Positions 792-33,937 of a stretch of 64,000 bases of DNA are shown here, in pieces. The stretch is from Escherichia coli (lineage in GTDB: Bacteria; Pseudomonadota; Gammaproteobacteria; Enterobacterales; Enterobacteriaceae), in NCBI RefSeq assembly GCF_050320075.1, contig NZ_CP190018.1. One strand, 5' to 3'. The notes below the pieces were generated by a model, which was given only the letters and a program-made list of their open reading frames with translations, was not told the DNA's origin and searched no databases. Within the stretch, counting starts at the first letter, position 1, and each line of letters begins with the position of its first letter. The position numbers were made by a program, and so were the translations under genes.

Positions 792-1607
792 ATGAGCAGA
801 CATGCAACAGATTGGGCCTGGGAGACAGATCCAGGTAGCTCATCATTAAAGCTCATACTGCTCTCGATGGCTGACAGAGCCGATGAATATAACCTCTGCT
901 ACCCCAGCATAGAACGCCTCGTTAAAGACACTTGCCTGAATAAAAAAACCGTGCAGGCCGGGCTTATATCGCTCATGAAAATGGGGCTTATTTCAGATAC
1001 CGGAGAGAGAAAGGGAGCGACAAAAAGAGTGCGGGTTTTCTCTCTTAATATAACCAAAAACGGGAACATTAAAGGCAACCGGGAAGGGGGTAATGAACCC
1101 GAAATCGGTAATGTTACCGAAAACGGGAATATACCCAAAAACGGGATGTTGAATGATCCCAAAAACGGGATGTTGAATGATCCCAAAAACGGGATCCAGA
1201 ACCAGTCATATAACCAGTCATTTAACCAAGAGAGGGAGAGCAGGACAAAAAGCGGGGATTCTGTGCCTCATGACCCCGGAGCAAACAACGCCGTGATGAA
1301 TAACTTTGTTCCTCCTGGTGGGCCAGGGCAATTAGGCAAATTTGTCATGCATGAACAATGGCAGCCATCAGATGACTTTCTTCGGAAAAGCTCATTGCAG
1401 GGGATCTACCTGGACAGTCTGCCAACGGCACAGGAACTTGCAGAGTTCAGAATTTACTGGATGGCTGAGGGTAAGGCATACCATCAGGCACAGTGGGAGC
1501 AGAAGCTGGCAAGGCGGCTGCAGATTAGCAGACAGAAGCAATCAACATTACCTGATAACAACGTTCCGCACTGGAACAGCCCTGAAGCATGGGAGGATTT
1601 CTTGTGA
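792..1607 (+). CDS. Replication initiator, lambda O-like (N-terminal winged-helix DNA-binding domain, iterons inside the gene)
   Basis: 271 aa; GGAG RBS; repeated peptide PKNGMLND encoded by tandem DNA repeats; immediately followed by the P-like gene. Confidence 0.7.
   Translation: MSRHATDWAWETDPGSSSLKLILLSMADRADEYNLCYPSIERLVKDTCLNKKTVQAGLISLMKMGLISDTGERKGATKRVRVFSLNITKNGNIKGNREGGNEPEIGNVTENGNIPKNGMLNDPKNGMLNDPKNGIQNQSYNQSFNQERESRTKSGDSVPHDPGANNAVMNNFVPPGGPGQLGKFVMHEQWQPSDDFLRKSSLQGIYLDSLPTAQELAEFRIYWMAEGKAYHQAQWEQKLARRLQISRQKQSTLPDNNVPHWNSPEAWEDFL
1054..1200. repeat. Iteron array (probable phage origin): two perfect 24-bp units CCCAAAAACGGGATGTTGAATGAT (1134-1157, 1158-1181), a third truncated unit (1182-1200), and degenerate copies at 1054-1068 and 1116-1130
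   Basis: Direct tandem repeats read in the sequence, followed by the short direct repeat ACCAGTCATATAACCAGTCATTTAACC. Confidence 0.7.
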
Positions 1608-2389
1608 ACAACGTTTTTACCGCGATACAAAACCGTGACGGAGAAGCCCTTTCTCGCATGTCAGGTTATGAGCATCAGTACGTCAACAATGACAATGTGG
1701 TGAACATGTCAGCAGAGAGGCTTGTTGATGCCCTTTTTAAACAGCTGAAACAACTGTTTCCGGCGGCAGTGGTAACCAACCTGAAGACGCCAGAGCAGGA
1801 AGTTGCTGCAAAACAGCAGTGGATTGCTGCGTTTGCCGAAGGGGGGATCCGAACCCGTGAACAGGTTTCTGCTGGTATGCGCCACGCCCGCGCCAGTGAA
1901 TCTCCGTTCTGGCCGTCTCCAGGGCAATTTATCAAGTGGTGCAAAGACAGCAAGATGGTTCTTGGCGTCACCATTGACGATGTGATGGCGGAGTTTCACC
2001 GGTACAGCAAGGAAAAAAGTTTATATCCTGGTGGTCCCGAAAGATTCCCGTGGCGACATCCGGTTATGTACTGGGTCGTATGTGATACCCGCCGTGCAAT
2101 GTATCAGCGCCAGCTTAGCGAGATTGAGGTTGAGAAACACGCACGCAGGCTGCTCGATGATTGGGCGAAAAAGGTGGCTTCCGGACAGCAGATACCCGAT
2201 CCGGTGATCAGCATACAGGCAAAGCCAGAGCCCATGAGTACGCCTCCGGACACAGGGAGAGACGTTTACCATCCACCAGGGCGAAGTTTCGGGTGCATGC
2301 CTAACGCCGCCACCCTTGGGGGAATAACACCGGCGCAGTGGCTGATGGAGGAATACAGGCGGGGAAAGGCGGCAGGATTTATCAAGTAA
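1589..2389 (+). CDS. Replication protein P-like (DnaB helicase loader); start 1589 or GTG 1605
   Basis: Matches my recollection of lambda P, e.g. QQWIAAFAEGGIRTREQVSAGMRHARASESPFWPSPGQFIKWCKD versus lambda RQWVLAFRENGITTMEQVNAGMRVARRQNRPFLPSPGQFVAWCRE. Confidence 0.8.
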   Translation: MGGFLVNNVFTAIQNRDGEALSRMSGYEHQYVNNDNVVNMSAERLVDALFKQLKQLFPAAVVTNLKTPEQEVAAKQQWIAAFAEGGIRTREQVSAGMRHARASESPFWPSPGQFIKWCKDSKMVLGVTIDDVMAEFHRYSKEKSLYPGGPERFPWRHPVMYWVVCDTRRAMYQRQLSEIEVEKHARRLLDDWAKKVASGQQIPDPVISIQAKPEPMSTPPDTGRDVYHPPGRSFGCMPNAATLGGITPAQWLMEEYRRGKAAGFIK

Positions 2390-2426
2390 TACCAGCGCGA
2401 TAGCGCATTTTTTTACGTCTATATGA

Positions 2427-2503
2427 TTACCTGGAAGGTAATAAAATGTTCTAATCTCTATTGATTTCATGTCTTATGTGGTTTTTAATTACCTAAGGGG
2501 TAA
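2427..2503. promoter_or_regulatory. Two operator-like palindromes (2427-2441 TTACCTGGAAGGTAA; 2489-2503 TTACCTAAGGGGTAA) flanking a promoter region; the second abuts the start codon at 2507
   Basis: Perfect TTACC-N5-GGTAA copies read in the sequence. Confidence 0.6.
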
Positions 2504-2506
2504 ATC

Positions 2507-2854
2507 ATGAGAAAACAGATACAGGCTCTTGGTCGACTCAAAACAGGCCAGATGAACAAAACAGAATCTGCGTATTGCCAGCACCTTGAGCTGCGTAAAC
2601 GTGCAGGGGAAATCGCCTGGTATCGATTCGAGGGTATCAAGCTGCGGTTAGCTAATAACACGTTCTATACGCCCGATTTCGCTGTGATGCTCGCCACCGG
2701 CGAGATGGAGCTGCACGAAGTGAAAGGGGGATTCTGGACCGATGACGCCAGAGTGAAAACCAAAGTCGCCGCAGATCAGTATCCGTTCCGAATCATCGGG
2801 GTAACGGTTAAACCAAAGAAAGCAGGTGGTGGCTGGAACATCGAAGAGTTCTGA
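2507..2854 (+). CDS. DUF1064-like protein (putative PD-(D/E)XK-type nuclease of phage replication modules)
   Basis: 115 aa; motif YTPDFAV...ELHEVKGG resembles the DUF1064 signature as recalled. Confidence 0.5.
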   Translation: MRKQIQALGRLKTGQMNKTESAYCQHLELRKRAGEIAWYRFEGIKLRLANNTFYTPDFAVMLATGEMELHEVKGGFWTDDARVKTKVAADQYPFRIIGVTVKPKKAGGGWNIEEF

Positions 2855-2915
2855 ATCGACGATCTATTTAGTTATCAATGTAATCAATAAGTTATGTGGA
2901 TAAGCGAGGGTAAAG

Positions 2916-3482
2916 ATGGAAAGTAATATCAAAGGGTTAGTTGCCGCCGGGCATGAGATGGCTTCGGAACTGAAAGCAGAATGTGGTGCCGTTGATATGC
3001 GCAGTGTGGCAAAGCTGATCAGCGATTTGGCAACGCAACTGGAAGTGCAACTGGTGCGTGCTAATGCGCTGGCGGCGGAGAGTGCGGCAATGCATGAAAC
3101 TATTGAAGCCGTTCGGAGTGTTGCGGATAACTCCAGTGGAATTGCCGGATGGCATTTGAATGGCGATATCGCTACATGGGAAGAGATTCTTCCTGAAATT
3201 AACGATATCGAAACTCCAGCCACCGATGCTTTCCTGGCTGAAATTCGTGCGGAAGCACGCAACGAGGGGATTAACTATACCGCCAGCCGTCTTGCTGCTG
3301 CGTTCAATCACGGATTTATCAATAAATCTTTGCGTGAAGTTTTCGACGTTACACGCATGATTTTGTCAGCGAAAGAAGAGTTGGCTAATGAACCGCATCC
3401 GATTGATGGCCTGTCCGGTGAATATGCGGAGAAATCCCTTGAAGAATGGGCGGAACAGATTCGCAAAGGAGGCAAGCAGTGA
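2916..3482 (+). CDS. Hypothetical phage protein (nin-like region)
   Basis: 188 aa ORF, same strand, compact spacing. Confidence 0.5.
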   Translation: MESNIKGLVAAGHEMASELKAECGAVDMRSVAKLISDLATQLEVQLVRANALAAESAAMHETIEAVRSVADNSSGIAGWHLNGDIATWEEILPEINDIETPATDAFLAEIRAEARNEGINYTASRLAAAFNHGFINKSLREVFDVTRMILSAKEELANEPHPIDGLSGEYAEKSLEEWAEQIRKGGKQ

Positions 3483-3778
3483 GTGTATATCTTATTGATA
3501 AACGTCGACGTGGGCAACAAATACCACCTGTAGGAATTCCGAATCACACATGGTTTTGCGTACTTGATATCGATGGTATGGATGCGTTGGTTGACACTCG
3601 TCATTACTGCGATACCGCAACAGCTACTCCGGCGAAAGCAAAGAAAATGGCTGCTCTGATAGAAAACTGGACTCCACCTGATGGTTGGTGCAATGGGAAT
3701 GATCGAGATTGGCATGAAAAAATGAAGGGCTATATCTGCGATTTCTTACGTAAATGCAACGGATTCAGGGTGATGTGA
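3480..3778 (+). CDS. Hypothetical phage protein (GTG start)
   Basis: ORF overlapping the previous stop; start placement uncertain. Confidence 0.4.
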
Positions 3779-3779
3779 C

Positions 3780-4337
3780 ATGAACAAGATTGACTATCAG
3801 GCACTGCGTGAGGCGGCAGAGAAGGCAACGTGGGGAGACTGGGACTCATATAAACCACACCGTGGCGCACGTGGTTATGAGGTCCGACTAAGTAGTCAGG
3901 CCATTGCGCAACACGTTCTGAAAAACAACGCTGAATTTATTGCTGCCTTTAATCCAAAGATTGCTTTGGCACTACTGGATGAACGGGAAAGGAACCAGCA
4001 ATACATCAAATCCCGCGACCAGGAGAACGAGGATATTGCACTAACGGTAGGGAAGTTGCGCGTTGAGCTGGAAGCAGCAAAATCAAAACTCAACGAGCAG
4101 CGTGAGTATTACGAAGGTGTTATCTCTGATGGGAGTAAGCGCATAGCAGAGTTAGAAAGTGGTTCTCAGGCACAAAAGTTAGTTGAAGCAATCATTGTTG
4201 CGATAGAAAACGAACAGGAACGTCTTTTTGATGAAGATTACCTAATGGATTCGAAAGAATGCATTGACGTAATTCGTGAAGAAGTAAAGCGATGGGATGA
4301 TTCCCGCGCCGCTGGCATTGGCATCAAAGGAGAGTGA
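3780..4337 (+). CDS. ead/Ea22-like family protein
   Basis: 185 aa; N-terminus MNKIDYQALREAAEKATWGDWDSY resembles the lambdoid Ea22-like N-terminal signature; coiled-coil middle. Confidence 0.55.
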   Translation: MNKIDYQALREAAEKATWGDWDSYKPHRGARGYEVRLSSQAIAQHVLKNNAEFIAAFNPKIALALLDERERNQQYIKSRDQENEDIALTVGKLRVELEAAKSKLNEQREYYEGVISDGSKRIAELESGSQAQKLVEAIIVAIENEQERLFDEDYLMDSKECIDVIREEVKRWDDSRAAGIGIKGE

Positions 4338-4338
4338 T

Positions 4339-4602
4339 ATGGCAACTTTGACAAAAAAAGAACAAGCATGGTTGAGCGAATTACAGGACGTTCTTGATCG
4401 CTGCCCATCACCGAAAAAAATTGGTTTTTACACCATTGGCGATAAAAGCATTTACCTGTATGACCTGCGCCGCATGGATGAAATCATGGAGGCTCTTGAT
4501 AATCGTTCGTCAATGGATTGGTGTGTTGCTGTTCATGATATGAATGCCGGATTTGATGAAAAGATTTTATTCCCCTCATCAGTTGAAAGTACAGCAGGAT
4601 AA
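4339..4602 (+). CDS. Hypothetical phage protein
   Basis: ATG 4339 preceded by GGAGAG; 87 aa. Confidence 0.45.
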   Translation: MATLTKKEQAWLSELQDVLDRCPSPKKIGFYTIGDKSIYLYDLRRMDEIMEALDNRSSMDWCVAVHDMNAGFDEKILFPSSVESTAG

Positions 4603-4612
4603 GGACTAACAC

Positions 4613-5542
4613 ATGACCACTATTACCAAAGAGCGACTGCTGACAATCAGGCAGTGGCGCGAAACATACGGACCTGGTAGCAACGTTGTACTGCCAGCAG
4701 AAGAAGCGGAAGAACTGGCACGAATTGCTCTGGCATCGCTGGAGCAGAATGTACTATCGGGCAACTCTCCGCTTATTCCTGGTGAAGTGTTGTCCGCAAT
4801 CCGGGAGGTTGCCAGGATTCGTGCCGATTTCGATGATTTTGACGGTGACAGGCGAGGTATCGGTGATTGTCTGGATGAGGCCGAGCAAGAGCTTATCGTT
4901 ACCATTAACAAATATGCCAGTCAGTTGGCAGCAGAACCGATAGCGACTAATGACGTTCGAGAGCAGCAGACAGCCGTTCCGCCAGTTCCGGAAATACAGG
5001 ATGATGTCGCGCAAGCAATTGAAAATCTCAAGCAGAAGTTAGTGGAATGCAATCGCTATAACTACTGCGCAGATGCAGTTAAAGGCGTAGAGGATGCCTG
5101 CCATGCTGCCATGCTTCATAGTGCCGAACCTGCAAGTAATCATGAAGAGTTGCCGCTTGATTATCTCCAAGGTCAAAAAGATGGTCTTGAATGGGCTGCG
5201 CAGCTTGCAGAAGCAAATCACCCACAAACTGGCGACTGGCTTTACGATGACCCGCTGGAGGTGGCTAAAGCTATCAGAAAAGGTCCTGACATGCCCGAAT
5301 TCGATGGACCAACTCCGGCAACTCCGGATGGTTGGATAAGCTGTAGTGAGCGAATGCCGAACGATAAACAGTATGTTTGGTGTTGGGGTAAGTCTTACGG
5401 CTGGACTGAGTGCGATACCTTCGAAGGGTATTACGATTGGTCGAGAAACAAATGGTGGGCAGTTACTGACGATGGGGAAGAACCGGCATCGAAAGTAACC
5501 CACTGGATGCCGCTACCAGAACCGCCGCAGGAGGTGAAGTGA
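4613..5542 (+). CDS. DUF551 domain protein (nin-region type)
   Basis: 309 aa; C-terminal Trp-rich segment WCWGKSYGWTECDTFEGYYDWSRNKWWAV...THWMPLPEPP resembles DUF551. Confidence 0.55.
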   Translation: MTTITKERLLTIRQWRETYGPGSNVVLPAEEAEELARIALASLEQNVLSGNSPLIPGEVLSAIREVARIRADFDDFDGDRRGIGDCLDEAEQELIVTINKYASQLAAEPIATNDVREQQTAVPPVPEIQDDVAQAIENLKQKLVECNRYNYCADAVKGVEDACHAAMLHSAEPASNHEELPLDYLQGQKDGLEWAAQLAEANHPQTGDWLYDDPLEVAKAIRKGPDMPEFDGPTPATPDGWISCSERMPNDKQYVWCWGKSYGWTECDTFEGYYDWSRNKWWAVTDDGEEPASKVTHWMPLPEPPQEVK

Positions 5543-5548
5543 TGAACA

Positions 5549-5671
5549 AGTGCAACGCTCTGCTTTATGCCATGGTGATTGGTTTCGGCCTGGTTGCTGG
5601 TATCCGGGTTTATATTACCTGGGAGTCATTAATCAATCTGGCGTGGAGTGCGATTCGTGGCTAAATCCCCC
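5549..5671 (+). CDS. Small hydrophobic peptide, 40 aa (MNKCNALLYAMVIGFGLVAGIRVYITWESLINLAWSAIRG); not in the ORF track
   Basis: ATG 5549 preceded by strong SD GGAGGTGA; single predicted TM helix; translated by hand. Confidence 0.35.
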
Positions 5672-5995
5672 GCAGAACGCAAAGCCGCGCAGCGCGCTCG
5701 GCAGTCCGCCGCCGGTGAGCGCAAAATTGAACTGGTGCTGGATAAGCAGGAGCAGGAAATGCTGGAGCGTAACTGTGCCACGCGTCGCCCCGGGCGTGCG
5801 CCTTACGAATTTGGGGAGTATATAGCGTTACTGATCCGCCAGGATGATGCACGCGTGCGCGGGCGTATAAAATCGATTAGCAGAAAACGTTGCGGTAAGT
5901 GCGGCGAGAAAGTTCCCGTTAATTCATGCCCGTGTAATGGTGACTCGCAATGCTGGGTGACTAAAGGCTGGCATGAAACGAAATTAATAGTGTGA
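5657..5995 (+). CDS. Hypothetical protein with C-terminal Cys cluster (CGKCGEKVPVNSCPCNGDSQC); possible regulator
   Basis: ORF 5648..5995, likely GTG start at 5657; stop TGA lies inside the GTGACATGTCAC palindrome. Confidence 0.4.
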   Translation: MAKSPAERKAAQRARQSAAGERKIELVLDKQEQEMLERNCATRRPGRAPYEFGEYIALLIRQDDARVRGRIKSISRKRCGKCGEKVPVNSCPCNGDSQCWVTKGWHETKLIV

Positions 5996-6003
5996 CATGT
6001 CAC
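5992..6003. repeat. Perfect 12-bp palindrome GTGACATGTCAC (copy 1)
   Basis: Read directly; overlaps the stop codon at 5993-5995 and precedes the terminator at 6045. Confidence 0.9.
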
Positions 6004-6044: not shown

Positions 6045-6070
6045 GCCGCCAACTATGGCGGCTTTATTTT
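6045..6070 (+). terminator. Rho-independent terminator
   Basis: Hairpin GCCGCC-AACTAT-GGCGGC followed by TTTATTTT. Confidence 0.6.
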
Positions 6071-6081
6071 GCATGGTACTA

Positions 6082-6114
6082 TTACCACAACGGTAACAAT
6101 TACCATGGTGGTTA
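6082..6114. promoter_or_regulatory. Operator-like palindromes at 6082-6096 (TTACCACAACGGTAA) and 6100-6114 (TTACCATGGTGGTTA, degenerate) upstream of terminase genes
   Basis: Read directly; they lie inside the over-extended track ORF 6036..6710. Confidence 0.55.
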
Positions 6115-6710
6115 TGATGCCTGCTGAACCTAAAACCTATAAACGCAAATCAACGCAATTTAAGCCACTAACCGCAATGCAGGAGGCTTATTGCCAGTCA
6201 TACATCAAAACGCCTGAAAACCAGACTCAGGCAGCGATTAACGCAGGATTCTCCCCAAATACAGCGGCAGTTAAAGCCAGTGTCATGATGCGCGATGAAC
6301 GCATTCAAAAACGGATTGCCGAGTTGATGGAGGAGCGCAACAAACGAATGCGCGTCAGTGCCGATTACGTTCTCATGCGCCTGGTGGAGATCGACCAGAT
6401 GGACGTGATTGATATCCTCAATGACGATGGGAGCCTTAAGCCAATCCGCGAGTGGCCGAAAATCTGGCGCACTACGCTTAGTGGCTTTGATCTGTCATCG
6501 ACCATCATGAACATGAACGAGGATTCGATAGAGACAATTCTCAAAAAAATTAAATGGCCTGACAAGGTGAAGAACCTCGAACTGATTGGTAAGCACGTCG
6601 ACGTCAATGCATTCAAAGAACGCCTGGATGTTAATGTGAATGTGACAATTGCTGATCGCATAGCGGCAGCCAGGAAGCGACTCAAAGAACGTCAGGATGG
6701 TAATCAGTGA
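6114..6710 (+). CDS. Terminase small subunit (start trimmed from track ORF 6036; true start 6105-6117 uncertain)
   Basis: Segment LTAMQEAYCQSYIKTPENQTQAAINAGFSPNTAAVKASVMMRDERIQKRIAEL resembles the terminase small-subunit DNA-binding domain; directly upstream of the large subunit. Confidence 0.6.
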   Translation: MMPAEPKTYKRKSTQFKPLTAMQEAYCQSYIKTPENQTQAAINAGFSPNTAAVKASVMMRDERIQKRIAELMEERNKRMRVSADYVLMRLVEIDQMDVIDILNDDGSLKPIREWPKIWRTTLSGFDLSSTIMNMNEDSIETILKKIKWPDKVKNLELIGKHVDVNAFKERLDVNVNVTIADRIAAARKRLKERQDGNQ

Positions 6711-8182
6711 CAGATACAGCGTTATCTCCTGAAGAGCAGTTGATCGAGGATATTGCAGGGTTCACTCACGATCCGCTTGGCTATGCCCTCTATGCGTTCC
6801 CGTGGGGGGAAGAGGGGACTGAACTGGCACATGCTACCGGCCCACGTCAGTGGCAGGCTGATGCGTTCCGAGAGATACGTGATCACCTGCAGAATCCAGA
6901 GACGCGCTATCAGCCGCTTATGCTGGCACGCGCTTCTGGTCACGGTATTGGTAAATCCGCATTCATCTCAATGCTGATCAACTGGGGCATGTCCACTTGC
7001 GAGGATTGTAAGGTCGTGGTGACCGCCAACACCGACAACCAGCTACGAACGAAGACCTGGCCGGAAATTATCAAGTGGTCGAACCTTGCTATCACGAAAG
7101 ACTGGTTTACCTGTACCGCTACTGCGATGTACAGCAATGATCCTGGGCACGACAAGCGGTGGCGAGCTGACGCAATCCCCTGGTCTGAGCACAACACTGA
7201 GGCATTCGCCGGACTACACAACGAGCGCAAACGCATCATCGTGGTATTCGATGAAGCGTCGAACATTGCGGATCTGGTGTGGGAAGTTGCTGAGGGTGCG
7301 CTTACGGACGAAGACACTGAGATTATCTGGGTGGCGTTCGGAAACCCTACACGTAATACCGGGCGTTTTCGCGAATGTTTCCGCAAATACAAACACCGCT
7401 GGAAAACTGCGCAGATTGACAGCCGGACGGTGGAAGGTACTAACAAACAGCAGTTGCAGAAATGGGTTGATGACTACGGGGAAGACAGCGACTTCGTTAA
7501 AATCCGTGTGCGCGGCATATTCCCTGATGCATCTGAATTGCAGTTTATCCCTACCGGTCTTACTGATGAGGCAATGAAACGGGTGGTAACCGCTGCGCAG
7601 GTTGCACATGCTCCGGTGATAATCGGCGTTGACCCGGCATACTCCGGAGTTGATGACGCTGTGATATACCTGCGGCAGGGGCTGCACAGTAAGGTGCTGT
7701 GGACTGGCAACAAGACCACTGACGATCTGATAATGGCGAAGCGTATCGCTGACTTTGAAGACCAGTACCAGGCTGACGCAGTGTTCATCGACTTCGGTTA
7801 CGGAACTGGTCTGAAGTCAATCGGTGACGGCTGGGGTCGTACATGGCAACTTGTTCCGTTCGGTGGCGCGTCTACTGACCCGCAGATGCTCAACAAGCGT
7901 GGGGAGATGTTCAACTCATGCAAGACATGGCTGAGGCTGGGCGGGATGCTGGATGACCAGGAAACAGCAGACGACCTGTCGACGGCAGAGTACAAAGTTC
8001 GCGTGGACGGTAAAATCGTTATCGAACCGAAGGAAGATATCAAGGAGCGGCTTGGGCGTTCGCCGGGTAAAGGCGATGCGCTACTGCTGACGTTTGCGTT
8101 CCCTGTGTCTAAGCGTCTGCGAATTCCCGGGCAGCAGAACCAGCAAGGCAAGGCCATTACAGATTACGATCCCTATGCTTAA
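6707..8182 (+). CDS. Terminase large subunit
   Basis: 491 aa; P-loop-like ASGHGIGKSAF; overlaps the small-subunit stop; typical size and position. Confidence 0.8.
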   Translation: MTDTALSPEEQLIEDIAGFTHDPLGYALYAFPWGEEGTELAHATGPRQWQADAFREIRDHLQNPETRYQPLMLARASGHGIGKSAFISMLINWGMSTCEDCKVVVTANTDNQLRTKTWPEIIKWSNLAITKDWFTCTATAMYSNDPGHDKRWRADAIPWSEHNTEAFAGLHNERKRIIVVFDEASNIADLVWEVAEGALTDEDTEIIWVAFGNPTRNTGRFRECFRKYKHRWKTAQIDSRTVEGTNKQQLQKWVDDYGEDSDFVKIRVRGIFPDASELQFIPTGLTDEAMKRVVTAAQVAHAPVIIGVDPAYSGVDDAVIYLRQGLHSKVLWTGNKTTDDLIMAKRIADFEDQYQADAVFIDFGYGTGLKSIGDGWGRTWQLVPFGGASTDPQMLNKRGEMFNSCKTWLRLGGMLDDQETADDLSTAEYKVRVDGKIVIEPKEDIKERLGRSPGKGDALLLTFAFPVSKRLRIPGQQNQQGKAITDYDPYA

Positions 8183-8232: not shown

Positions 8233-8259
8233 AGCCAGCTCATCGGCTGGCTGTTTGTG
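8233..8259. terminator. Bidirectional terminator hairpin
   Basis: AGCCAGC-TCATCG-GCTGGCT flanked by T-rich runs on both strands; ends + strand terminase transcription and the minus-strand gene 8273..8644. Confidence 0.6.
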
Positions 8260-8268
8260 ACATGTCAC
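8257..8268. repeat. Perfect 12-bp palindrome GTGACATGTCAC (copy 2)
   Basis: Read directly; between the stop of minus gene 8273..8644 and the terminator hairpin. Confidence 0.9.
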
Positions 8269-8272: not shown

Positions 8273-8644
8273 TTATTGCTCGCTTAACTTCTGCTTCAGC
8301 AAGTAACCTTCAAGCATCCAGATTTTGTTTACAGCATTCTGCCGGGCAATCTTCCGACCAATTTCCGCATCAAAGTTTTCCGGGCTTGCACAGGCGCTCT
8401 CTCCGGTGACGGTGAAGCCGTTGCGCAGCACCAGAACGCAGAACGTCAGCAGAGAAAGTGATTCGTGCGGCTGGTAGTTTACCTCTCCGCCAGTATGTTT
8501 CGCTTTTATGGCTACGCCAAAGACACCATCTTCTGCTGTGAAATATGCCTCCTGAGCAATAATGCTCTCGATATGGTCTGGCGTAACGCGCGGCGCGGCT
8601 AAACCTTTAGCCTGAATTTCAGATTCAATGTCTTTGTCACTCAT
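8273..8644 (-). CDS. Hypothetical protein, opposite strand (moron-like)
   Basis: 123 aa ORF on the minus strand between terminase and the tRNA, with its own terminator; family not recognised. Confidence 0.5.
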   Translation of the reverse strand: MSDKDIESEIQAKGLAAPRVTPDHIESIIAQEAYFTAEDGVFGVAIKAKHTGGEVNYQPHESLSLLTFCVLVLRNGFTVTGESACASPENFDAEIGRKIARQNAVNKIWMLEGYLLKQKLSEQ

Positions 8645-8847: not shown

Positions 8848-8924
8848 TGGCGTGGCATGCAGGATTCGAACCTGCGACCAACCGCTTAGAAGGCGGTTGC
8901 TCTGTCCAACTGAGCTAATGCCAC
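8848..8924 (-). tRNA. tRNA-Arg (anticodon UCU, reads AGA), phage-borne
   Basis: Hand-folded cloverleaf: 7-bp acceptor stem GTGGCAT/ATGCCAC, D-stem GCTC/GAGC, anticodon stem ACCGC/GCGGT with loop CUUCUAA, T-arm GCAGG-TTCGAAT-CCTGC, encoded 3' CCA. Confidence 0.9.
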
Positions 8925-9247
8925 AACGCTGAGAGCACTTAGCCTGTTAAGTGCGCCACACTTTGTCGCAGCTCCATAAATGCTCTCATCGTTGTACCCT
9001 CGTCTCTTCCGAGGCGTCACACCGAATCGCCGGGATGGTGAATCCCCGTGCGCGGAATAAAACCGCTCGACTTGCACATTCCGGCTACCTGGTTCGTTTG
9101 CCCGAGCAAGGGAGGGTGCCCCTTAAACGTATCCAGACCGCTATCGGCGCATGTGCCATACGCCGTACTGCTCAAAATAAAAGCTCACTCCACCTGTTCA
9201 ATTTAACGACAAGCCAGTCAGGTTAATAACCGGAATGAACCATTTAC

Positions 9248-9262
9248 TTACCTGAAAGGTAA
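9248..9262. promoter_or_regulatory. Operator-like palindrome TTACCTGAAAGGTAA upstream of the portal operon
   Basis: Perfect copy of the motif, followed by TAATAA. Confidence 0.6.
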
Positions 9263-9352
9263 TAATTCGTGCGTTAAATGTCAACTACCTACGATAAATA
9301 AATCATATGTGGTTAAATTGGTAATAATTTAATTGCGTACGGAGTCATTGAT

Positions 9353-9573: not shown

Positions 9574-11253
9574 ATGGCGGAAACAACTAAAGAGCGATTG
9601 AGCAAACAGTTCGCACAACTTGAAAGCGAGCGTCAGTCGTTCGAGCCGCACTGGCGCGAGTTGAGTGATTACATCAACCCGCGTGGTTCCCGCTTTCTGA
9701 CTTCTGAGGCCAACCGTAACGATCGGCGCAATACACACATTATTGATTCGACCGGGACTATGGCGGCGCGCACTCTCGCCAGCGGCATGATGTCAGGCAT
9801 CACAAGCCCCGCGCGTCCGTGGTTTCGCCTGGCTACGCCAGATCCTGAAATGATGGATTATGGCCCTGTTAAGTTGTGGCTTGAGGCGGTGCAGAACCGC
9901 ATGAACGATATGTTCAATAAGTCGAATCTCTATCAGTCGCTGCCGCAGTTATACGGAAGCCTCGGCACATACAGCACCGGTGCAATGGCGGTACTGGAGG
10001 ATGATGAGGACATCATTCGCACAATGCCATTCCCGATAGGCAGTTACTACCTGGCTAACTCACCTCGTGGCAGTGTTGACACCTGTTTTCGCAAGTTCTC
10101 TATGACTGTTCGTCAGCTTGTTCAGGAGTTCGGGCTAAATAACGTCAGCGAATCCGTAAAAAGCATGTGGGAAAGCGGCATCTACGAGAAGTGGATTGAC
10201 GTGATGCATTCGGTTTACCCGAACATTGACCGCGATACATCGAAGCTGGATAGCAAGAACAAGCCATTCAAATCGGTTTATTACGAGGTTGGTGGCGATA
10301 ACGACAAGTTGTTGCGTGAGTCCGGATTCGATGAGTTTCCAATTATGGCTCCGCGCTGGGAAGTTAACGGTGAAGATGTTTATGGATCATCATGCCCGGG
10401 CATGCTGGCGCTTGGACCTGTTAAGGCATTGCAGCTTCTCCAGAAGCGCAAGTCGCAGTTGATTGATAAAGCCACCAATCCGCCGATGGTTGCTCCGACT
10501 TCCCTCAAGAATCAGCGCGCCTCCCTTCTTCCTGGCGACATCACGTATATCGATCAGATTACTGGTCAGGATGGCTTCAGGCCTGCTTATCTGGTTAACC
10601 CCAGTACAGCAGATTTGGTGGCAGACATTCAGGACACTCGTCAAATCATTAACAGCGCCTACTTTGTCGATCTGTTCATGATGTTGCAGAACATCAATAC
10701 CCGCTCGATGCCTGTTGAAGCGGTGATCGAAATGAAAGAAGAAAAACTTCTGATGTTGGGGCCGGTTCTGGAGCGTCTGAACGACGAATGTCTTAATCCT
10801 CTCATTGACCGCGCTTTCTCGATGATGGTGCGTAAAAACATGCTGCCGCCACCGCCTGACGCGATGGAAGGCATGCCCCTGAAGGTCGAATACATTTCCG
10901 TCATGGCTCAGGCGCAGAAGTCTATCGGCCTGTCCAGTCTGGCGTCCACGGTTAACTTCATTGGTCAACTTGCGCAAGCGAAACCAGAAGCTCTCGACAA
11001 ACTCAACGTTGATCAGGCGATCGATGCATTCGCTGATATGTCCGGAGTGTCTCCAACCGTCATTGTTCCGCAGGAACAGGTTGAGCAGGCTCGCCAGCAA
11101 CGGGCACAGCAGCAACAGCAGCAACAAATGATGGCGATGGGGATGGCGGCGGCACAGGGGGCCAAGACGCTAAGCGAAGCTAAAACTTCGGATCCGAGTG
11201 TTTTGTCAGCTATGGCGAATGCAGTTAGTGGTCAGGGTGGGCAATCACAATGA
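9574..11253 (+). CDS. Portal protein
   Basis: 559 aa, immediately after the terminase region; size and position typical. Confidence 0.7.
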   Translation: MAETTKERLSKQFAQLESERQSFEPHWRELSDYINPRGSRFLTSEANRNDRRNTHIIDSTGTMAARTLASGMMSGITSPARPWFRLATPDPEMMDYGPVKLWLEAVQNRMNDMFNKSNLYQSLPQLYGSLGTYSTGAMAVLEDDEDIIRTMPFPIGSYYLANSPRGSVDTCFRKFSMTVRQLVQEFGLNNVSESVKSMWESGIYEKWIDVMHSVYPNIDRDTSKLDSKNKPFKSVYYEVGGDNDKLLRESGFDEFPIMAPRWEVNGEDVYGSSCPGMLALGPVKALQLLQKRKSQLIDKATNPPMVAPTSLKNQRASLLPGDITYIDQITGQDGFRPAYLVNPSTADLVADIQDTRQIINSAYFVDLFMMLQNINTRSMPVEAVIEMKEEKLLMLGPVLERLNDECLNPLIDRAFSMMVRKNMLPPPPDAMEGMPLKVEYISVMAQAQKSIGLSSLASTVNFIGQLAQAKPEALDKLNVDQAIDAFADMSGVSPTVIVPQEQVEQARQQRAQQQQQQQMMAMGMAAAQGAKTLSEAKTSDPSVLSAMANAVSGQGGQSQ

Positions 11254-11546
11254 CAGATTACGAAGACGATCAACTGAAAGAAGAAAACGCCCGTAAGCAA
11301 CGTGACATGGCACAGCGTGAAATTGATGACATTCGCTTTGTCATGAGCTGTGAACAGGGGCGTCGGGTTGTCTGGTCGGTACTGGAGAAAGGCCGTGTGT
11401 TTTCCGCTATCTCGCCGATGGACGCTATGGCAATGGCATTTAATGAGGGGCAACGCAATCTGGCGCTGGAACTGTTTCAGCGCGTTATGGCGCATTGCCC
11501 TGAACAGTATTTGAAGATGGCCAAAGAGGCCAGTGAACAGGAGTGA
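11250..11546 (+). CDS. Hypothetical head-morphogenesis protein
   Basis: 98 aa ORF overlapping the portal stop. Confidence 0.45.
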   Translation: MTDYEDDQLKEENARKQRDMAQREIDDIRFVMSCEQGRRVVWSVLEKGRVFSAISPMDAMAMAFNEGQRNLALELFQRVMAHCPEQYLKMAKEASEQE

Positions 11547-11548
11547 TC

Positions 11549-12244
11549 ATGAATTTATTTGAGCGTTTGCTGTATAGCCGTCTTTGCAATGAGCAACCAG
11601 TCGATGGTGGAGCAGCTCCGGCTGCGTCAGAACCGTCAGCGCCTGCAGGTGATAACCCTGCTCCAGTTGGTGATCCATCACAACAGGAAGGTGATAAGCC
11701 ACAACCTGTTGCTGATGGCGATAAACCTGCTGATGACAAAAAGCCTGAAAACGATAAGCAGGATGAAAAAAAGGACGGCGATAAACCAGAGGGTGCGCCT
11801 GAGAAGTACGAGTTTCAGGCTGCCGAAGGCGTAGAGCTGGATACAGAAGCGTTGAAGGAGTTCGAGCCGGTGGCGCGAGAACTTAACCTGACCAACGAGC
11901 AAGCGCAAAAGCTGGTTGATGCTTATCCGAAAATTCTGGCAGGTGTTCAGCAGCGCCAGGCAGAAGCCTGGCAGAAAACAACCGAGCAGTGGGCTGCGGA
12001 TGTAAAAGCTGACAAAGAAATCGGTGGCGACAAGTTGATTTCTAACCTTAGCGCCGCACAGCGTGCGCTTGACCAGTTCGGGACACCTGAACTCAAAGAA
12101 TATCTGAACACCACCGGGCTGGGTAATCACCCTGATCTGGTCAAAACGTTCGTGAAAATCGGAAAGGCTATGTCTGAAGATGGCATGGTCACCGGTGGTA
12201 ATGAAGGCCAGCGTAGTGCGGCCGAAGTGCTCTATGGCAAATAA
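11549..12244 (+). CDS. Scaffold-like protein (acidic, Pro/Asp/Lys-rich N-terminus)
   Basis: Low-complexity acidic region with GDKP repeats; position between portal and capsid. Confidence 0.5.
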   Translation: MNLFERLLYSRLCNEQPVDGGAAPAASEPSAPAGDNPAPVGDPSQQEGDKPQPVADGDKPADDKKPENDKQDEKKDGDKPEGAPEKYEFQAAEGVELDTEALKEFEPVARELNLTNEQAQKLVDAYPKILAGVQQRQAEAWQKTTEQWAADVKADKEIGGDKLISNLSAAQRALDQFGTPELKEYLNTTGLGNHPDLVKTFVKIGKAMSEDGMVTGGNEGQRSAAEVLYGK

Positions 12245-12258
12245 GAGAGGAGATAACA

Positions 12259-13245
12259 ATGTCTGTTAAAGGCTTAACTGCGCTAACGCTGGCTGACTGG
12301 GGTAAGCGCGTCGATCCAAATGGGAAAGTCGATAAGATTATCGAGCTTCTCAATCAAACTAACCCAATTCTTCAGGATATGCCTTTTGTTGAAGGAAACC
12401 TTCCTACCGGACACCGAACCACCATTCGTTCTGGTTTACCTTCTGCTACCTGGCGTTTGCTGAACTATGGCGTACAGCCAAGCAAATCAACCACAGTGCA
12501 GGTCACCGATTCCATTGGCATGCTGGAAACCTATGCTGAAGTCGATAAGTCTCTGGCTGATCTGAACGGTAATACTGCCGAATTCCGTCTGTCTGAAGAC
12601 CGAGCATTTATTGAAGCGATGAATCAGGCGATGGCGCAGACACTGTTTTACGGTGATTCCAGCGTTAACCCTCAGCAGTTTATGGGACTGTCCTCCCGCT
12701 ATTCCAGCCTGTCTGCGGGTAATGCTCAGAACATCATTGATGCTGGTGGCACGGGTACAGATAACACTTCAATCTGGTTAGTGGTGTGGGGCGAAAACAC
12801 CGTGCATGGCATCTTCCCGAAAGGACAGAAGGCTGGCATTCAGATGGAAGATAAAGGCCAGGTGACACTGGAAGATGCTAAAGGCGGCAAGTACGAAGGT
12901 TATCGTACCCATTATAAGTGGGACAACGGGCTGACATTACGTGACTGGCGCTATGTAGTTCGTATCGCAAACATTGATGTCAGTAATCTTGACGCTCCTT
13001 CTACTGCCGCGAATATCGCAAAACTGATGATTCGTGCCCTTCATCGAATCCCAAATCGTGGGATGGGACGTCCTGTTTTCTACATGAACAGAACCATTAA
13101 CGAAGTGCTTGACCTGCAATCTCTGGAGAAGAGTTCTCTGGCGATCAGCGTGAAAGAGACAGAAGGCGAATGGTGGACAGCACTTCGTGGTGTGCCGATT
13201 CGTGAAACTGACGCACTTCTGGAAACAGAAGCCCGCGTGGTGTAA
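12259..13245 (+). CDS. Major capsid protein
   Basis: 328 aa; strong RBS GAGAGGAG; position after the scaffold-like gene. Confidence 0.65.
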   Translation: MSVKGLTALTLADWGKRVDPNGKVDKIIELLNQTNPILQDMPFVEGNLPTGHRTTIRSGLPSATWRLLNYGVQPSKSTTVQVTDSIGMLETYAEVDKSLADLNGNTAEFRLSEDRAFIEAMNQAMAQTLFYGDSSVNPQQFMGLSSRYSSLSAGNAQNIIDAGGTGTDNTSIWLVVWGENTVHGIFPKGQKAGIQMEDKGQVTLEDAKGGKYEGYRTHYKWDNGLTLRDWRYVVRIANIDVSNLDAPSTAANIAKLMIRALHRIPNRGMGRPVFYMNRTINEVLDLQSLEKSSLAISVKETEGEWWTALRGVPIRETDALLETEARVV

Positions 13246-13296
13246 CGCCTGTTATTAACCTGTGGGCCGCAACAGGCCCACTAATGGAGAAAGAAG

Positions 13297-13734
13297 ATGA
13301 TCACCGACAAACTGTTGATGTTCTCCGAAGCACAGGCGGTAACTGATACCGCGGCTTCTACTGACGTAATCGATCTCGGTCCAATTGACGGAAACCGTCG
13401 CGATATCGGTGTGGGTTACCCGCTTGAGTTTTGGGTGCTGGTTAACGAAGCCGCCACGGCAAGTGGTGAGGCAACTGTAAACATCCAGTTGCAGACGAGT
13501 GAGAATAACAGCTCATGGTCCACTATTTATGATAGTGGCGCACTGGCAAAGGCCACCCTGACAGCAGGTAAGCGAGTTGTTTCTGCAAAGGTGCCTGCCG
13601 GTGTTCAGCGATATCTGCGTGTTAACTACTCCGTCGCAACTGGCCCACTAACGGCTGGCAAATTCACTGCGGGTATCAATCTTGATGTTGATGCCAATAC
13701 GCCGTATCCGATCCGCTCAAAAGTAACTGGTTAA
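13297..13734 (+). CDS. Hypothetical virion protein (possible capsid decoration)
   Basis: 145 aa, GGAGAAAG RBS, directly after the capsid gene. Confidence 0.45.
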   Translation: MITDKLLMFSEAQAVTDTAASTDVIDLGPIDGNRRDIGVGYPLEFWVLVNEAATASGEATVNIQLQTSENNSSWSTIYDSGALAKATLTAGKRVVSAKVPAGVQRYLRVNYSVATGPLTAGKFTAGINLDVDANTPYPIRSKVTG

Positions 13735-13744
13735 GGTGATATTG

Positions 13745-14080
13745 ATGTCAGGTGAGAAACCAAGATACCGCGTTCTGCGCCTCTCTCATATCCATAACAC
13801 TCTGTGGCCGGAGGGGGCAGAAATCGAATACGAAGGTGAGCCTGGTAGCGCACTGGAACCTGTTAACGATGCAGCCAGACAGGCAAAAGCAAAAGTTGCA
13901 GGAAAGGTGTCAATGGCAGCAACCAGCACCAAAATCATCAACGATGTGTCAGATGATGGTGAACTGGATAAGCTCCGTGAAGAGTACGAATTGCTCTTTA
14001 ACGAGAAGCCACACCATAACGCCAAAGCCGAAACGCTCCGCGAGAAGATCGCAGATAAGCGTAAAGAACTGGGCGTGTAA
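13745..14080 (+). CDS. Hypothetical protein
   Basis: ORF 13736..14080 with ATG at 13745. Confidence 0.4.
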   Translation: MSGEKPRYRVLRLSHIHNTLWPEGAEIEYEGEPGSALEPVNDAARQAKAKVAGKVSMAATSTKIINDVSDDGELDKLREEYELLFNEKPHHNAKAETLREKIADKRKELGV

Positions 14081-14136
14081 GCCTCGCGAATCAGACAAGG
14101 GGCTTCGGCCCCTTTATTGCAGGAGTATAGAAACTT

Positions 14137-14742
14137 ATGGCCTCTGTAGTAGAGATCTGCAATCGTGCGCTGTCCAATATTGGCAACAGCCGCAGTATTA
14201 ACAGCCTGACGGAAGCCAGCAAGGAAGCGGGGGAATGTTCGCTGCACTTTGAGGCCTGCCGTGATGCTGTGCTTTCTGATTTTGACTGGAACTTTGCTAC
14301 CAAACGCGTGGCGCTTGCAGATACGAGCAATCCACCGCCTGACTGGGAATATGCGTACCAGTACCCGTCCGATTGTCTGCGCATTACTGAAATTATGCTT
14401 CCTGGTGTACGCAATCCAACAGCAGCAATGCGCGTTCAGTACGAAGTTGGTGCAGACACCAACGGAACAGGAAAGTTGATCTACACAGACCAGCCGCAGG
14501 CATGGCTCAAGTATGTATCTCGCGTTTCAGATGTGAACATGTTTGATGCCATTTTTATGGAGGCGTTGGCCTGGCGTCTTGCGGCAGCCATTAACATGGC
14601 GCTGACTGGGAATGCAGACCTCGGTACGTTTGCCCTCAATATGTACAATCGCGTGATTCTTAGTGCTGGCTCGCATAGCCAGAATGAATCACAGGAACCA
14701 CAGCCACCGGTTGACGAGTTTACCATTGCGAGGTTGTCCTGA
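14137..14742 (+). CDS. Hypothetical virion/connector protein
   Basis: 201 aa, preceded by a hairpin at ~14097-14118. Confidence 0.45.
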   Translation: MASVVEICNRALSNIGNSRSINSLTEASKEAGECSLHFEACRDAVLSDFDWNFATKRVALADTSNPPPDWEYAYQYPSDCLRITEIMLPGVRNPTAAMRVQYEVGADTNGTGKLIYTDQPQAWLKYVSRVSDVNMFDAIFMEALAWRLAAAINMALTGNADLGTFALNMYNRVILSAGSHSQNESQEPQPPVDEFTIARLS

Positions 14743-17213: not shown

Positions 17214-17677
17214 TGATCGATGTTCAAATTATTCCCGCTACCGAAGAGCATCTTCAGATGATTTTGCCGGATGTTCGTCAGGCTGATATTGACGAACTGT
17301 ATGCGGTATCACTGATGACTACCGAAGATGCGCTGCGTGTTGGTCTGCGTACTGCGACTATGGCCTGGTCAGGATTTGCGAACGGAGAACTGGTAACCAT
17401 GTTTGGTGTATCTCCGGCGTCAATGATCGGTGGCAATGGTACGCCCTGGCTGGTCGGAACCAGCCGTATTGAAAAATATCAGAAGACATTTCTTCGCCAC
17501 TGCCGCCCTGTATTGCAGCAGATGCTGGCAGTTTATCCGCGCCTGGAAAACTACGTCGACGAGCGAAACCATGTTGCCAAAGCATGGCTGCACTGGCTTG
17601 GATTCAGGCTTGAAGAAGCCGCGCCTTATGGTGCTCTTGGTCTTAATTTCCACAGATTTCACATGGAGAGAAAATAA
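17213..17677 (+). CDS. Hypothetical virion protein
   Basis: 154 aa, coupled. Confidence 0.45.
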   Translation: MIDVQIIPATEEHLQMILPDVRQADIDELYAVSLMTTEDALRVGLRTATMAWSGFANGELVTMFGVSPASMIGGNGTPWLVGTSRIEKYQKTFLRHCRPVLQQMLAVYPRLENYVDERNHVAKAWLHWLGFRLEEAAPYGALGLNFHRFHMERK

Positions 17678-20843: not shown

Positions 20844-20844
20844 C

Positions 20845-25471: not shown

Positions 25472-25768
25472 ATGCAAGCGATAGGATTCATTGTTTATAT
25501 CGTCGTTGGTCTTTTTCAGTTGGCAGCAATTATGGCTGGGCTTGAATCATGGTGGGGATTGCACTGGATAATTGCAGCCCCCATTGCTTTCATCGTGAGC
25601 TATATTCCATTTGTTGGAGCGATTGTTGGTATGGTTGGTGCTGTGGATGTATGGCGGTGGGAGTGGTGGCAGGCTGGCCTTCTCTTCTTTGGTGGGATCA
25701 TCTTTGCTATTGTCTGCGGTGGAATGTCATCATTTTTCGAACGGCTATCATTCAGAAAAGGAACGTGA
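25472..25768 (+). CDS. Small integral membrane protein (about 3 TM helices)
   Basis: 98 aa, hydrophobic segments; stop TGA inside the GTGACATGTCAC palindrome. Confidence 0.55.
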   Translation: MQAIGFIVYIVVGLFQLAAIMAGLESWWGLHWIIAAPIAFIVSYIPFVGAIVGMVGAVDVWRWEWWQAGLLFFGGIIFAIVCGGMSSFFERLSFRKGT

Positions 25769-25776
25769 CATGTCAC
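25765..25776. repeat. Perfect 12-bp palindrome GTGACATGTCAC (copy 3)
   Basis: Read directly; overlaps stop 25766-25768; followed by a terminator. Confidence 0.9.
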
Positions 25777-33922: not shown

Positions 33923-33937
33923 GACTCCTCCTGATCA

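Follow-up and report, generated by a model that had tools for sequence, protein, structure and literature searches.

We conclude that the 64,000-nucleotide stretch of Escherichia coli DNA analyzed here (from contig NZ_CP190018.1; hereafter the window) very probably contains ~33 kb of a phiV10-type Uetakevirus prophage, its right-hand part, at the guaA/yfgI site, with the open reading frame at 1589-2389 as its P-family helicase loader. The initiator gene upstream and the P gene form a swappable cassette (about 546-2393) that is one of several in the genus. Mosaicism is real at the level of the genus, but it is ordinary. Window segments 32600-36600 and 780-2400 match E. coli YZLc1-3 (NZ_CP123240.1) at 100%, and in that genome the prophage sits between guaA and yfgI. 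Gene-by-gene synteny, nucleotide similarity, a GP7 capsid and a T7-type portal place the prophage among the epsilon15/phiV10-like podoviruses of Uetakevirus. The ICTV genus threshold is about 70% whole-genome intergenomic similarity; the left 6 kb of the prophage lies outside the window, and the similarity figures given here are megablast coverage-times-identity values of window segments, with the late region 95.5% identical to phiV10 over 55% and 76.5% identical to epsilon15 over 32%. The prophage genes and terminator-like hairpins for which coordinates are given below lie on the + strand.

The initial annotation had recognized a relative of lambda P next to a uetakevirus-like structural module, and homology searches uphold both assignments. 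The frame that runs exactly from an ATG at 1589 to a stop at 2389 has 266 codons for amino acids. Its product matches PF06992 (Phage_lambda_P) over profile positions 2-162 of 162 (Pfam E-value 1.5e-56; score 191.1 bits, cut-off 26 bits). It also matches PHROG 109 'P-like helicase loader' (4.7e-92) and, by BLASTP, lambda P itself (E 2e-35, 201 aligned residues, 31% identity). Residues 1-204, which correspond to lambda P domains I-III, align with the solved lambda P chain 8v9t_V (2e-31). The protein is 99% identical to phiV10 gp44 (phiV10p44), labeled "replication protein P" in its record. Residues 205-261 align weakly with lambda P 200-233, and the C-terminal ~55 residues align poorly with lambda P domain IV (residues 193-233), the C-terminal 'lasso' that grips DnaB. 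The phi80-type gp14 aligns over 95% of the protein, C-terminus included. The true start of the P gene is probably the GTG at 1604, because a Shine-Dalgarno sequence (GGAGGA, 1592-1597) lies 7 nt before it, it overlaps the initiator TGA as GTGA, and it is the start annotated in both phiV10 and PGAP.

The gene at 792-1607 encodes a putative origin-binding replication initiator that is O-like in behavior only and should be named a DnaT-C-domain initiator. The protein has an HTH_36 winged-helix N-domain (Pfam, 1.8e-10), a linker encoded by repeats, a DnaT-like C-domain (1.2e-15) and a C-terminal tail (VPHWNSPEAWEDFL), and it matches PHROG 1032 'replication initiation protein' (1.8e-107). Residues 180-265 are homologous to the C-terminal ssDNA-binding domain of E. 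coli DnaT (DnaT 85-170; about 7e-21 against solved DnaT chains). Compared to E. coli DnaT, the initiator has the winged-helix domain, predicted to be origin-specific, in place of the DnaT N-terminal domain, and the DnaT tail is replaced. The NCBIfam DnaT equivalog model NF002770 scores 85 bits against a cut-off of 201, with only residues 181-264 matching. A lambda O homologue can be ruled out by the DnaT-like C-domain, by BLASTP, which detects no similarity to lambda O (best E 0.07, 17 residues), and by PF04492 (Phage_rep_O), which is absent at E<=0.01 while the same search gives lambda O a match at 5.7e-36. 'O-like' PHROGs give weak matches to the initiator N-terminus. Of the "lambda-type O/P" module that had been proposed, the organization stands, with iterons within the initiator gene itself and a stop codon that overlaps the start of P, but homology to O does not.

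A putative origin lies within the initiator gene, at 1046-1198, where exact copies of a repeat cluster. Five exact CCNAAAACGGGA iteron cores occur within 140 bp, compared to 0.93 expected in the whole window even when one mismatch is allowed, and the last three iterons are ATCCCAAAAACGGGAT-type dyads with a spacing of 24 bp. The dyad, ATCCC-AAAAAC-GGGAT, is similar to the lambda iteron ATCCCTCAAAACGAGGGAT, and lambda, too, has its ATCCC...AAAAC...GGGAT iterons midway along the initiator gene. Similar arrays occupy the corresponding part of the gene in Vibrio phage H20, HK225, PPompW and lambda. The related initiator gene of H20 contains six iteron-like repeats: five share the core CCGAAAACGGTAC and lie at 24-bp intervals (four of these are identical CCCGAAAACGGTAC units), and the sixth is an upstream variant. 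No convincing, clearly AT-rich unwinding element was found after the iterons here. The AT-richest 40 nt (67.5%) lie upstream of the first iteron and run into it, whereas lambda reaches 75% just downstream of its iterons.

The same genes, order, overlap and iterons are present in phiV10 (gp43/gp44), EC.W1-9, phiv142-3, PAS61 and the O157 typing phages 9 and 10. phiV10 differs by a few substitutions and by one more 12-nt repeat in the linker of its initiator, which has 275 amino acids, compared to 271 here. The likeness to lambda lies in the order of initiator and loader, the overlapping stop and start, and a P that is homologous over domains I-III. In contrast, lambda O has a PF04492 N-domain, and neither the HTH_36 N-domain nor the DnaT-like C-domain is homologous to it. 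The iteron is shorter than that of lambda (16 bp, compared to 19 bp), a marked AT-rich tract after the iterons is missing, the C-terminus of P is longer than that of lambda P and divergent, and the tail motif of the initiator is of another type. Also unlike lambda, the prophage has no ren and no Q. Klebsiella phage RothC ('primosomal protein 1' and P) has the same HTH_36 plus DnaT initiator, the tail type SPHWNSPEGWKDFI, and a P with 63.5% identity. HK225 (phi80-type gp15/gp14) has a PF04492-type initiator with a lambda-type tail. Both RothC and HK225 are lambdoid siphovirus genomes, unlike the podovirus-like prophage described here.

Homology and gene anatomy suggest how replication might begin. 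The winged-helix N-domain of the initiator would bind the five iterons in its own gene (1046-1198), as lambda O does at ori-lambda, and the unwound single strand would be engaged by the DnaT-like C-domain. Translation of P would be coupled to that of the initiator at the GTGA stop/start overlap, and P would bind host DnaB via its conserved domains II-III and C-terminus. Its N-terminal ~95 residues would dock on the initiator, likely at the extreme C-terminal tail (...HWNSPEAWEDFL). DnaB would then be loaded, and the host replisome would assemble.

Published work on lambda places the P-binding region at the C-terminus of O and the O-binding region at the N-terminus of P; a collection of O mutants includes an O amber allele that keeps 294 of 299 residues. 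We compared 10 initiator-P pairs: the more alike the last 16 residues of two initiators are, the more alike residues 1-95 of their P proteins tend to be (Mantel rho 0.65, p 0.0004). For the same 10 pairs, with initiator bodies from four Pfam families, tail similarity is unrelated to similarity of the body (rho 0.01). We tentatively propose that the last ~15 initiator residues are a portable docking peptide for P-type loaders, with two tail types, 'HWNSxEAWExF' and 'LDxxNTDWIxGV', that would each have a counterpart type of P N-domain and would occur on unrelated bodies (DnaT-type, lambda-O-type, HTH_36-only and Lin1244/DUF4373-type). However, the two segments adjoin on the DNA, and co-variation could thus reflect simple physical linkage and is not proof of contact. 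The tail codons also hold the Shine-Dalgarno sequence of P.

One alternative is that the initiator loads DnaB via the host PriB/DnaT/DnaC restart route, and that P is an accessory, acting for example in DnaB sequestration or dependence on a host factor. P is not intrinsically required by the DnaT-type initiator class, since epsilon15 and SPN1S have an initiator of this class without P. epsilon15 gp42 and SPN1S_0046 occupy the same slot, with a DnaT-like C-domain and the same conserved intergenic flanks, which carry operator sites, but their N-domains are unrelated and no P gene follows. epsilon15 gp42 ends right after the DnaT domain. The SPN1S initiator ends in ...RDVNAVPEPDSEIPPGFRG, which is almost identical to the C-terminal tail of host DnaT (17 of 20 residues match). 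P on its own has been described as sequestering DnaB and as toxic, in keeping with an accessory role. Against the host route, the phages with P have another tail, which co-varies with the P N-terminus, the initiator and P genes are probably translationally coupled, as in lambda, and the E. coli and Enterobacter members have kept P, with 82-99% identity. We consider the host route improbable for the phages that have P. For SPN1S the idea is speculative, because no binding partner of the host DnaT C-terminal tail was found in the DnaT paper that we examined. If the docking peptide is real, the Uetakeviruses show both states of a switch: the E. coli members have a P-docking tail and P, and the Salmonella members that lack P, with a host-DnaT tail or no tail, presumably use the host loader.

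The limits of the cassette are visible when members of the genus are compared. In epsilon15 and SPN1S it is replaced by a version with an initiator and no P, and in TL-2011b by another initiator with a hybrid P. On the left, the first early-rightward gene (195-425) encodes a small epsilon15 gp39-like regulator (PHROG 35 'transcriptional repressor', 5.6e-13; equivalent to phiV10p41) and is followed by a terminator-like hairpin (447-466), and the conserved flank extends to about 545. A small conserved protein, epsilon15 gp40-like (576-776; PHROG 1081, 1.8e-42), is encoded just upstream of the initiator. On the right, the boundary is a conserved intergenic segment with two TTACC-N5-GGTAA inverted repeats (2426-2442 and 2488-2504) whose epsilon15 equivalent is annotated 'repressor'. 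The next gene, for a DUF1064 protein (2507-2854), follows P here and directly follows the initiator in SPN1S. Accessory 'ea/nin-like' genes (eae-like, DUF7739, Ead/Ea22 and DUF551) occupy 2916-5542.

The initial annotation implied an unusual new hybrid, in which P or the whole module had recently come from a lambdoid phage. In favor of this, lambdoid siphoviruses typically carry P-family loaders, the Salmonella phages epsilon15 (the type species) and SPN1S have no P, and the adjoining accessory genes share >90% nucleotide identity with Stx and lambdoid phages. This sharing is confined to the ea22/DUF551 accessory genes (about 3200-5550), however, and sensitive blastn found no lambdoid or Stx phage that matches the module at the nucleotide level, which contradicts a recent lambdoid origin. 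Protein identity to the P of lambda, Stx phages and phi80-type phages is only 30-35%. The initiator-P module is 97.7-99.8% identical in nucleotide sequence to those of EC.W1-9, phiv142-3, PAS61 and phiV10, 404 of 5426 complete E. coli genomes (about 7%) carry it, and the P of Enterobacter phage Tyrion is 86% identical to the one described here. We therefore regard recent capture as very improbable. The mosaic genome that had been postulated holds up at the level of the genus, with the cassette swapped in epsilon15, SPN1S and TL-2011b, but it does not hold up as a discovery, because the initiator-P pair is standard in phiV10 relatives, where its members are annotated as DnaT-family and lambda-P-family proteins. 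The phiV10-type cassette is already known and annotated in published phage genomes.

Outside the replication cassette, the prophage is epsilon15/phiV10-like. The terminase small and large subunits are encoded at 6118-8182, with the small-subunit start probably at ATG 6118 (conserved MPAEP). The Uetakevirus morphogenesis operon (9574-25091) encodes the T7-type portal (Head-tail_con profile, 5.6e-187), a protease, the GP7 major capsid protein (1.5e-148), tail tube proteins and internal/ejection proteins. The large ejection proteins, chaperone-domain tailspike and GH19 endolysin that had been noted from the sequence are all present. The three large internal/ejection proteins have 898 (with an SLT domain), 565 and 850 amino acids. 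In the 947-residue tailspike (28432-31275), residues 817-876 form a C-terminal intramolecular chaperone domain (Peptidase_S74), and an operator-like repeat (28312-28328) lies upstream of the tailspike gene. The lysis cassette (31358-33164), at the right end of the prophage, encodes a membrane protein, a holin, the GH19 endolysin (32056-32685), which matches the SPN1S endolysin structure 4ok7 at 3e-113, and an Rz-like spanin; the host gene yfgI starts at 33383. The structural region is 95.5-97.7% identical in nucleotide sequence to those of EC.W1-9, phiv142-3, PAS61 and phiV10, in agreement with the proposed Uetakevirus-like character of the morphogenesis and lysis genes (95-98% nucleotide identity to the phiV10 group, 76.5% to epsilon15). 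A decaying remnant with non-functional replication genes is highly unlikely: PGAP calls three DUF551-region fragments (about 4613-5542) pseudogenes and the window holds only part of the prophage, but all replication, packaging, structural and lysis frames are unbroken and follow the gene order of plaque-forming phages, to which they are 96-99.8% identical, and the matching genome YZLc1-3 has the full 39-kb prophage with its integrase (PGAP annotation).

The absence of a Q-like antiterminator, also proposed earlier, is borne out. No Q family match was found with Pfam (including PF03589, Antiterm), PHROGs or NCBIfam in the scanned frames (early-right genes and reverse-strand islands), in a search in which lambda Q scored 6e-58 as a positive control, and the PGAP annotation of the NZ_CP123240.1 prophage names no Q. 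The last early-right gene (5657-5995), conserved and epsilon15 gp49-like ('transcriptional regulator'), lies at the position of lambda Q and is not a Q homologue. As a hidden Q it was rejected: the protein has no Pfam, NCBIfam or PDB sequence match, and Foldseek with its AlphaFold model, of moderate confidence (pLDDT 74.8), returned nothing from the PDB below E 5. Its N15 homologue is gp46, distinct from the annotated late activator gp40. A Q-like role for this protein is unsupported. A perfect palindrome, GTGACATGTCAC, overlaps its stop codon (5992-6003), with exact copies at 8257-8268 and 25765-25776. A Rho-independent terminator-like hairpin with a T-run (6045-6070) separates the early-right operon from terS and is conserved in epsilon15, Tyrion and SPN1S.

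Late-gene control might instead depend on sites of the immunity type. The 17-bp inverted repeat TTACC-N5-GGTAA has 22 strand-matches in the window, compared to 0.43 expected, and occurs in the immunity region, after P, and before terS, the portal operon, the tailspike gene and ant; the epsilon15 record marks the same positions as repressor sites. One copy (95-111) lies in the repressor/early-right control region, where the epsilon15 equivalents are annotated 'repressor', two adjacent operator-like inverted repeats (6081-6115) directly precede terS (epsilon15 site 12-27, annotated 'repressor'), and a further operator-like copy is at 9247-9263. Position and the epsilon15 record point to the prophage repressor as the protein that would bind these sites. 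Because the immunity-region repeat precedes each late operon, direct repressor control of the late operons, not a Q antiterminator, is the likeliest arrangement. Immunity-type operators on late operons would be a regulatory logic unlike that of lambda. This is predicted in the epsilon15 record, we found no test of it in the literature, and we found no information on replication or late regulation in the vB_EcoP_ZX5 paper.

The replication module described here restates the published organization of a common kind of E. coli prophage, the phiV10-like temperate podoviruses, and as a finding in itself it matters little. If the docking peptide is real, it would provide a simple sequence rule for the choice of loader at a phage origin, and a handle for re-wiring that choice. 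The genus offers a natural comparison of one initiator class with and without P, and could help to dissect the choice between host and phage helicase loaders.

On sequence similarity, the prophage is a phiV10-group Uetakevirus. In megablast searches against phage genomes, it is 95-99% identical to EC.W1-9, phiv142-3, PAS61, phiV10 and the O157 typing phages 9 and 10, ~81% identical to Enterobacter phage Tyrion and ~76% identical to Salmonella phage epsilon15. The right-hand part of this temperate podovirus prophage occupies positions 1 to ~33,200 and the remainder of the window is E. coli chromosome, with yfgI, yfgH, yfgG and pdeF to the right of the prophage and, at 50303-63101 on the minus strand, a region whose ORF lengths and gene sizes and order point to the hyf (hydrogenase-4) operon, hyfR and focB included. 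The window begins within the prophage repressor gene and therefore does not include attL, int or the early-left operon. A matching full-length prophage is present in E. coli YZLc1-3 (NZ_CP123240.1), where ~39 kb of prophage lies between guaA and yfgI and the integrase gene adjoins guaA; the two segments compared (780-2400 and 32600-36600) are 100% identical.

The structural and lysis modules are epsilon15/SPN1S-like, as the initial annotation had proposed. The late region encodes a GP7-type capsid protein, a T7-type portal, internal proteins of 898 amino acids (with an SLT domain), 565 amino acids and 850 amino acids, a 947-amino-acid tailspike with a Peptidase_S74 chaperone domain, and a GH19 endolysin similar to the SPN1S endolysin of structure 4OK7 (3e-113). 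Two reverse-strand islands interrupt it. The first, between terL and the portal operon, carries a tRNA-Arg(TCT) gene (8848-8924, minus strand), with an ORF of the 'Gp49 family' resembling Sf6 gene 66 (8273-8644) next to it; the annotations of O157 typing phages 9 and 10 include this tRNA gene too. The second (25800-28250, minus strand), between the structural operon and the tailspike gene, encodes small DUF2335 membrane proteins, an antirepressor of the BRO-N/Ant type (26978-27817) and, at 27978-28235, a small protein that is a partial paralogue of the antirepressor C-terminus.

The ORF at 1589-2389 is present exactly as first described, and by homology its product belongs to the lambda P family. 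It matches the full PF06992 profile (1.5e-56) and PHROG 109, 'P-like helicase loader' (4.7e-92), and shares 31% identity with lambda P (E 2e-35). In the solved structure 8v9t, the lambda P chain aligns with residues 1-204 (E 2e-31), a span that corresponds to lambda P domains I-III, with the domain limits given in PMC12661323. Translation probably does not begin at ATG 1589: the sequence GGAGGA lies at 1592-1597, and both the phiV10 record and PGAP start P at GTG 1604, which overlaps the TGA of the upstream initiator gene as GTGA.

That initiator gene (792-1607) had been described as part of a lambda-type O/P module, and here the description fails. We reject homology to lambda O: the initiator has no BLASTP similarity to it and does not match PF04492, which lambda O itself matches at 5.7e-36 in the same test. 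Instead, the protein consists of an HTH_36 winged-helix N-domain, a linker encoded by repeats, and a C-domain that is a homologue of the C-terminal, ssDNA-binding domain of host DnaT (Pfam 1.2e-15; DnaT chains in PDB ~7e-21). It is not DnaT, since its score falls far under the equivalog cut-off (85 vs 201 bits). PHROGs places it in the class 'replication initiation protein' (1.8e-107); its matches to 'O-like' families are weak and lie in the N-terminal part only.

Repeats within the initiator gene resemble a lambda-type origin. Five copies of CCNAAAACGGGA are clustered at 1046-1198, against an expectation of 0.93 matches across the entire window even when one mismatch is tolerated, and the final three form dyads of the ATCCCAAAAACGGGAT type at 24-bp spacing. 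Lambda has four iterons of the ATCCCTCAAAACGAGGGAT type at the same relative position within O. The initiator of Vibrio phage H20 (1801-2769 of its record), whose N-domain is 44% identical to that of the window initiator, has six iteron-like copies at the same gene position, five with the core CCGAAAACGGTAC at exact 24-bp spacing and one upstream variant; four of the core copies are identical CCCGAAAACGGTAC units. No P gene is annotated 3' of the H20 initiator. Related initiators in HK225, PPompW and Edno5 have CCC-N-AAAAC-GGG motifs at this place. A search downstream of the window iterons found no clearly AT-rich unwinding tract. We infer that the initiator and P work together as a lambda-like origin module, in which the DnaT-like ssDNA-binding domain would act once the origin opens and the initiator tail, its last ~15 residues, would recruit P by docking the P N-terminus.

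The initial annotation had also noted the lack of a Q-like antiterminator, and this observation stands: no ORF scanned matched a Q family, and PGAP named none. The position of lambda Q is occupied by the last early-right gene (5657-5995), which resembles epsilon15 gp49 and is classed by PHROG as a 'transcriptional regulator'; between it and terS are a promoter-like site and a conserved terminator (6045-6070). A Q-like role for its product is unsupported, since the protein has no family match and no PDB sequence match, its moderate-confidence model has no PDB fold match, and its N15 homologue is distinct from the annotated late activator of N15. A candidate operator of this gp49-like regulator is the perfect 12-bp palindrome GTGACATGTCAC, which occurs exactly three times in the window (5992-6003, 8257-8268 and 25765-25776; 0 expected), each time at the 3' end of a plus-strand operon beside a terminator-like hairpin. 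All three sites are present in epsilon15 and SPN1S; the first has one mismatch in phiV10 and spans the record junction in Tyrion. The palindrome is not annotated in the epsilon15 and phiV10 records. In the unrelated phages ZF40, N15, KpLi5 and AH07, the gene of the gp49-like homologue has a GTGAC-N2-GTCAC palindrome at its stop codon, either overlapping it or immediately after it.

Operators of the immunity type seem to be present at the late operons. The 17-bp inverted repeat TTACC-N5-GGTAA has 22 strand-matches in the window (0.43 expected). It is found in the immunity region (95-111, and two PL sites in the full prophage), at 481-496, right after P (2426-2442 and 2488-2504), directly ahead of terS (6081-6097 and 6099-6115), ahead of the portal operon (9247-9263), flanking the antirepressor gene (26877-26893 and 27931-27947) and ahead of the tailspike gene (28312-28328), as well as at 10108-10186 of another sequence record, L004. 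The holin-endolysin cassette has no such site in front. We regard these sites as operators because the equivalent positions in the epsilon15 GenBank record are annotated as repressor-binding. Judging from position only, a plausible substitute for a Q cascade at the late operons is direct control by the repressor. As called mechanically, the terS ORF starts at TTG 6036, as in the phiV10 record, and spans the conserved terminator and two operator-like sites; comparison with epsilon15 and Tyrion indicates that the conserved start is probably ATG 6118 (MPAEP...).

The proposal of a mosaic genome was partly right. Sequence comparison indicates that the replication region is a replaceable cassette within the genus: homology to epsilon15 and SPN1S ends at ~546 and resumes at 2394, directly after the P stop codon. 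However, the combination of P with this structural module is not notable. The initiator-P pair is standard phiV10-group content, a known and common architecture already annotated in the phiV10 record as DnaT-family plus lambda-P-family. Four isolated phages carry it at 97.7-99.8% identity, and 404 of the 5426 complete E. coli genomes contain it; PGAP uses the name 'replication protein P' there. Recent import from a lambdoid phage can be rejected, as a sensitive blastn search with the module gives no hit in lambda or Stx phages and P is 28-35% identical to lambdoid P proteins. Stx and other lambdoid phages share recently exchanged sequence with the prophage (90-99% nucleotide identity) only at the ea22/eae/DUF551 accessory genes (~3200-5550). 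Within these, a 309-amino-acid ORF ending in a DUF551 domain (4613-5542), which PGAP splits into three pseudogene fragments in YZLc1-3, looks like a chimera of Stx-phage-like ea/DUF551 pieces.

In epsilon15 and SPN1S the slot holds an initiator alone, and tblastn finds no P anywhere in either genome. The epsilon15 initiator ends right after the DnaT domain. That of SPN1S (35140-35955 of its record) ends in ...RDVNAVPEPDSEIPPGFRG, a near-copy (17/20 residues) of the C-terminal tail of host E. coli DnaT, ...RDVNTVSEPDSQIPPGFRG, and may mimic a host primosome contact. These initiator ends hint that phages lacking P use the host loading route.

We compared 12 initiator-P pairs, and the initiator tails sort into two main types. 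The tail 'HWNSPEAWEDFL' is found in the window, phiV10, Tyrion, RothC, PdC23 and Pm34, and the lambda-type tail 'LDLTNTDWIYGVDL' in lambda, Edno5, HK225 and TL-2011b. Each pairs with a matching type of P N-terminus whatever the initiator body (DnaT-type, PF04492-type, HTH_36-only or Lin1244-type). With the near-duplicate phiV10 and the truncated P of PPompW left out, the remaining 10 pairs show a correlation between tail similarity and similarity of P residues 1-95 (rho 0.65, Mantel p 0.0004); tail similarity and similarity of the initiator body are uncorrelated (rho 0.01). TL-2011b has a hybrid P (2414-3190 of its record), lambda-P-like over ~95 N-terminal residues and ~100% phiV10-type in the remainder, with the junction at about window position 1859; its initiator differs from that of the window and ends in a tail resembling that of lambda O. 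The hybrid P is also found in ZX5 and HEMP4. Published genetic work on lambda maps P binding to the C-terminus of O and O binding to the N-terminus of P, and an amber allele that keeps 294 of 299 residues is among the listed O mutants (PMC6022878). However, linkage explains the correlation as well as contact does, because the tail codons abut the P start; they also contain the Shine-Dalgarno sequence of P. We hold only tentatively, and with more doubt than confidence, that initiator tail and P N-terminus form a portable docking code, with a switch between replication with and without P inside one genus. If shown, such a code and switch would be of moderate interest.
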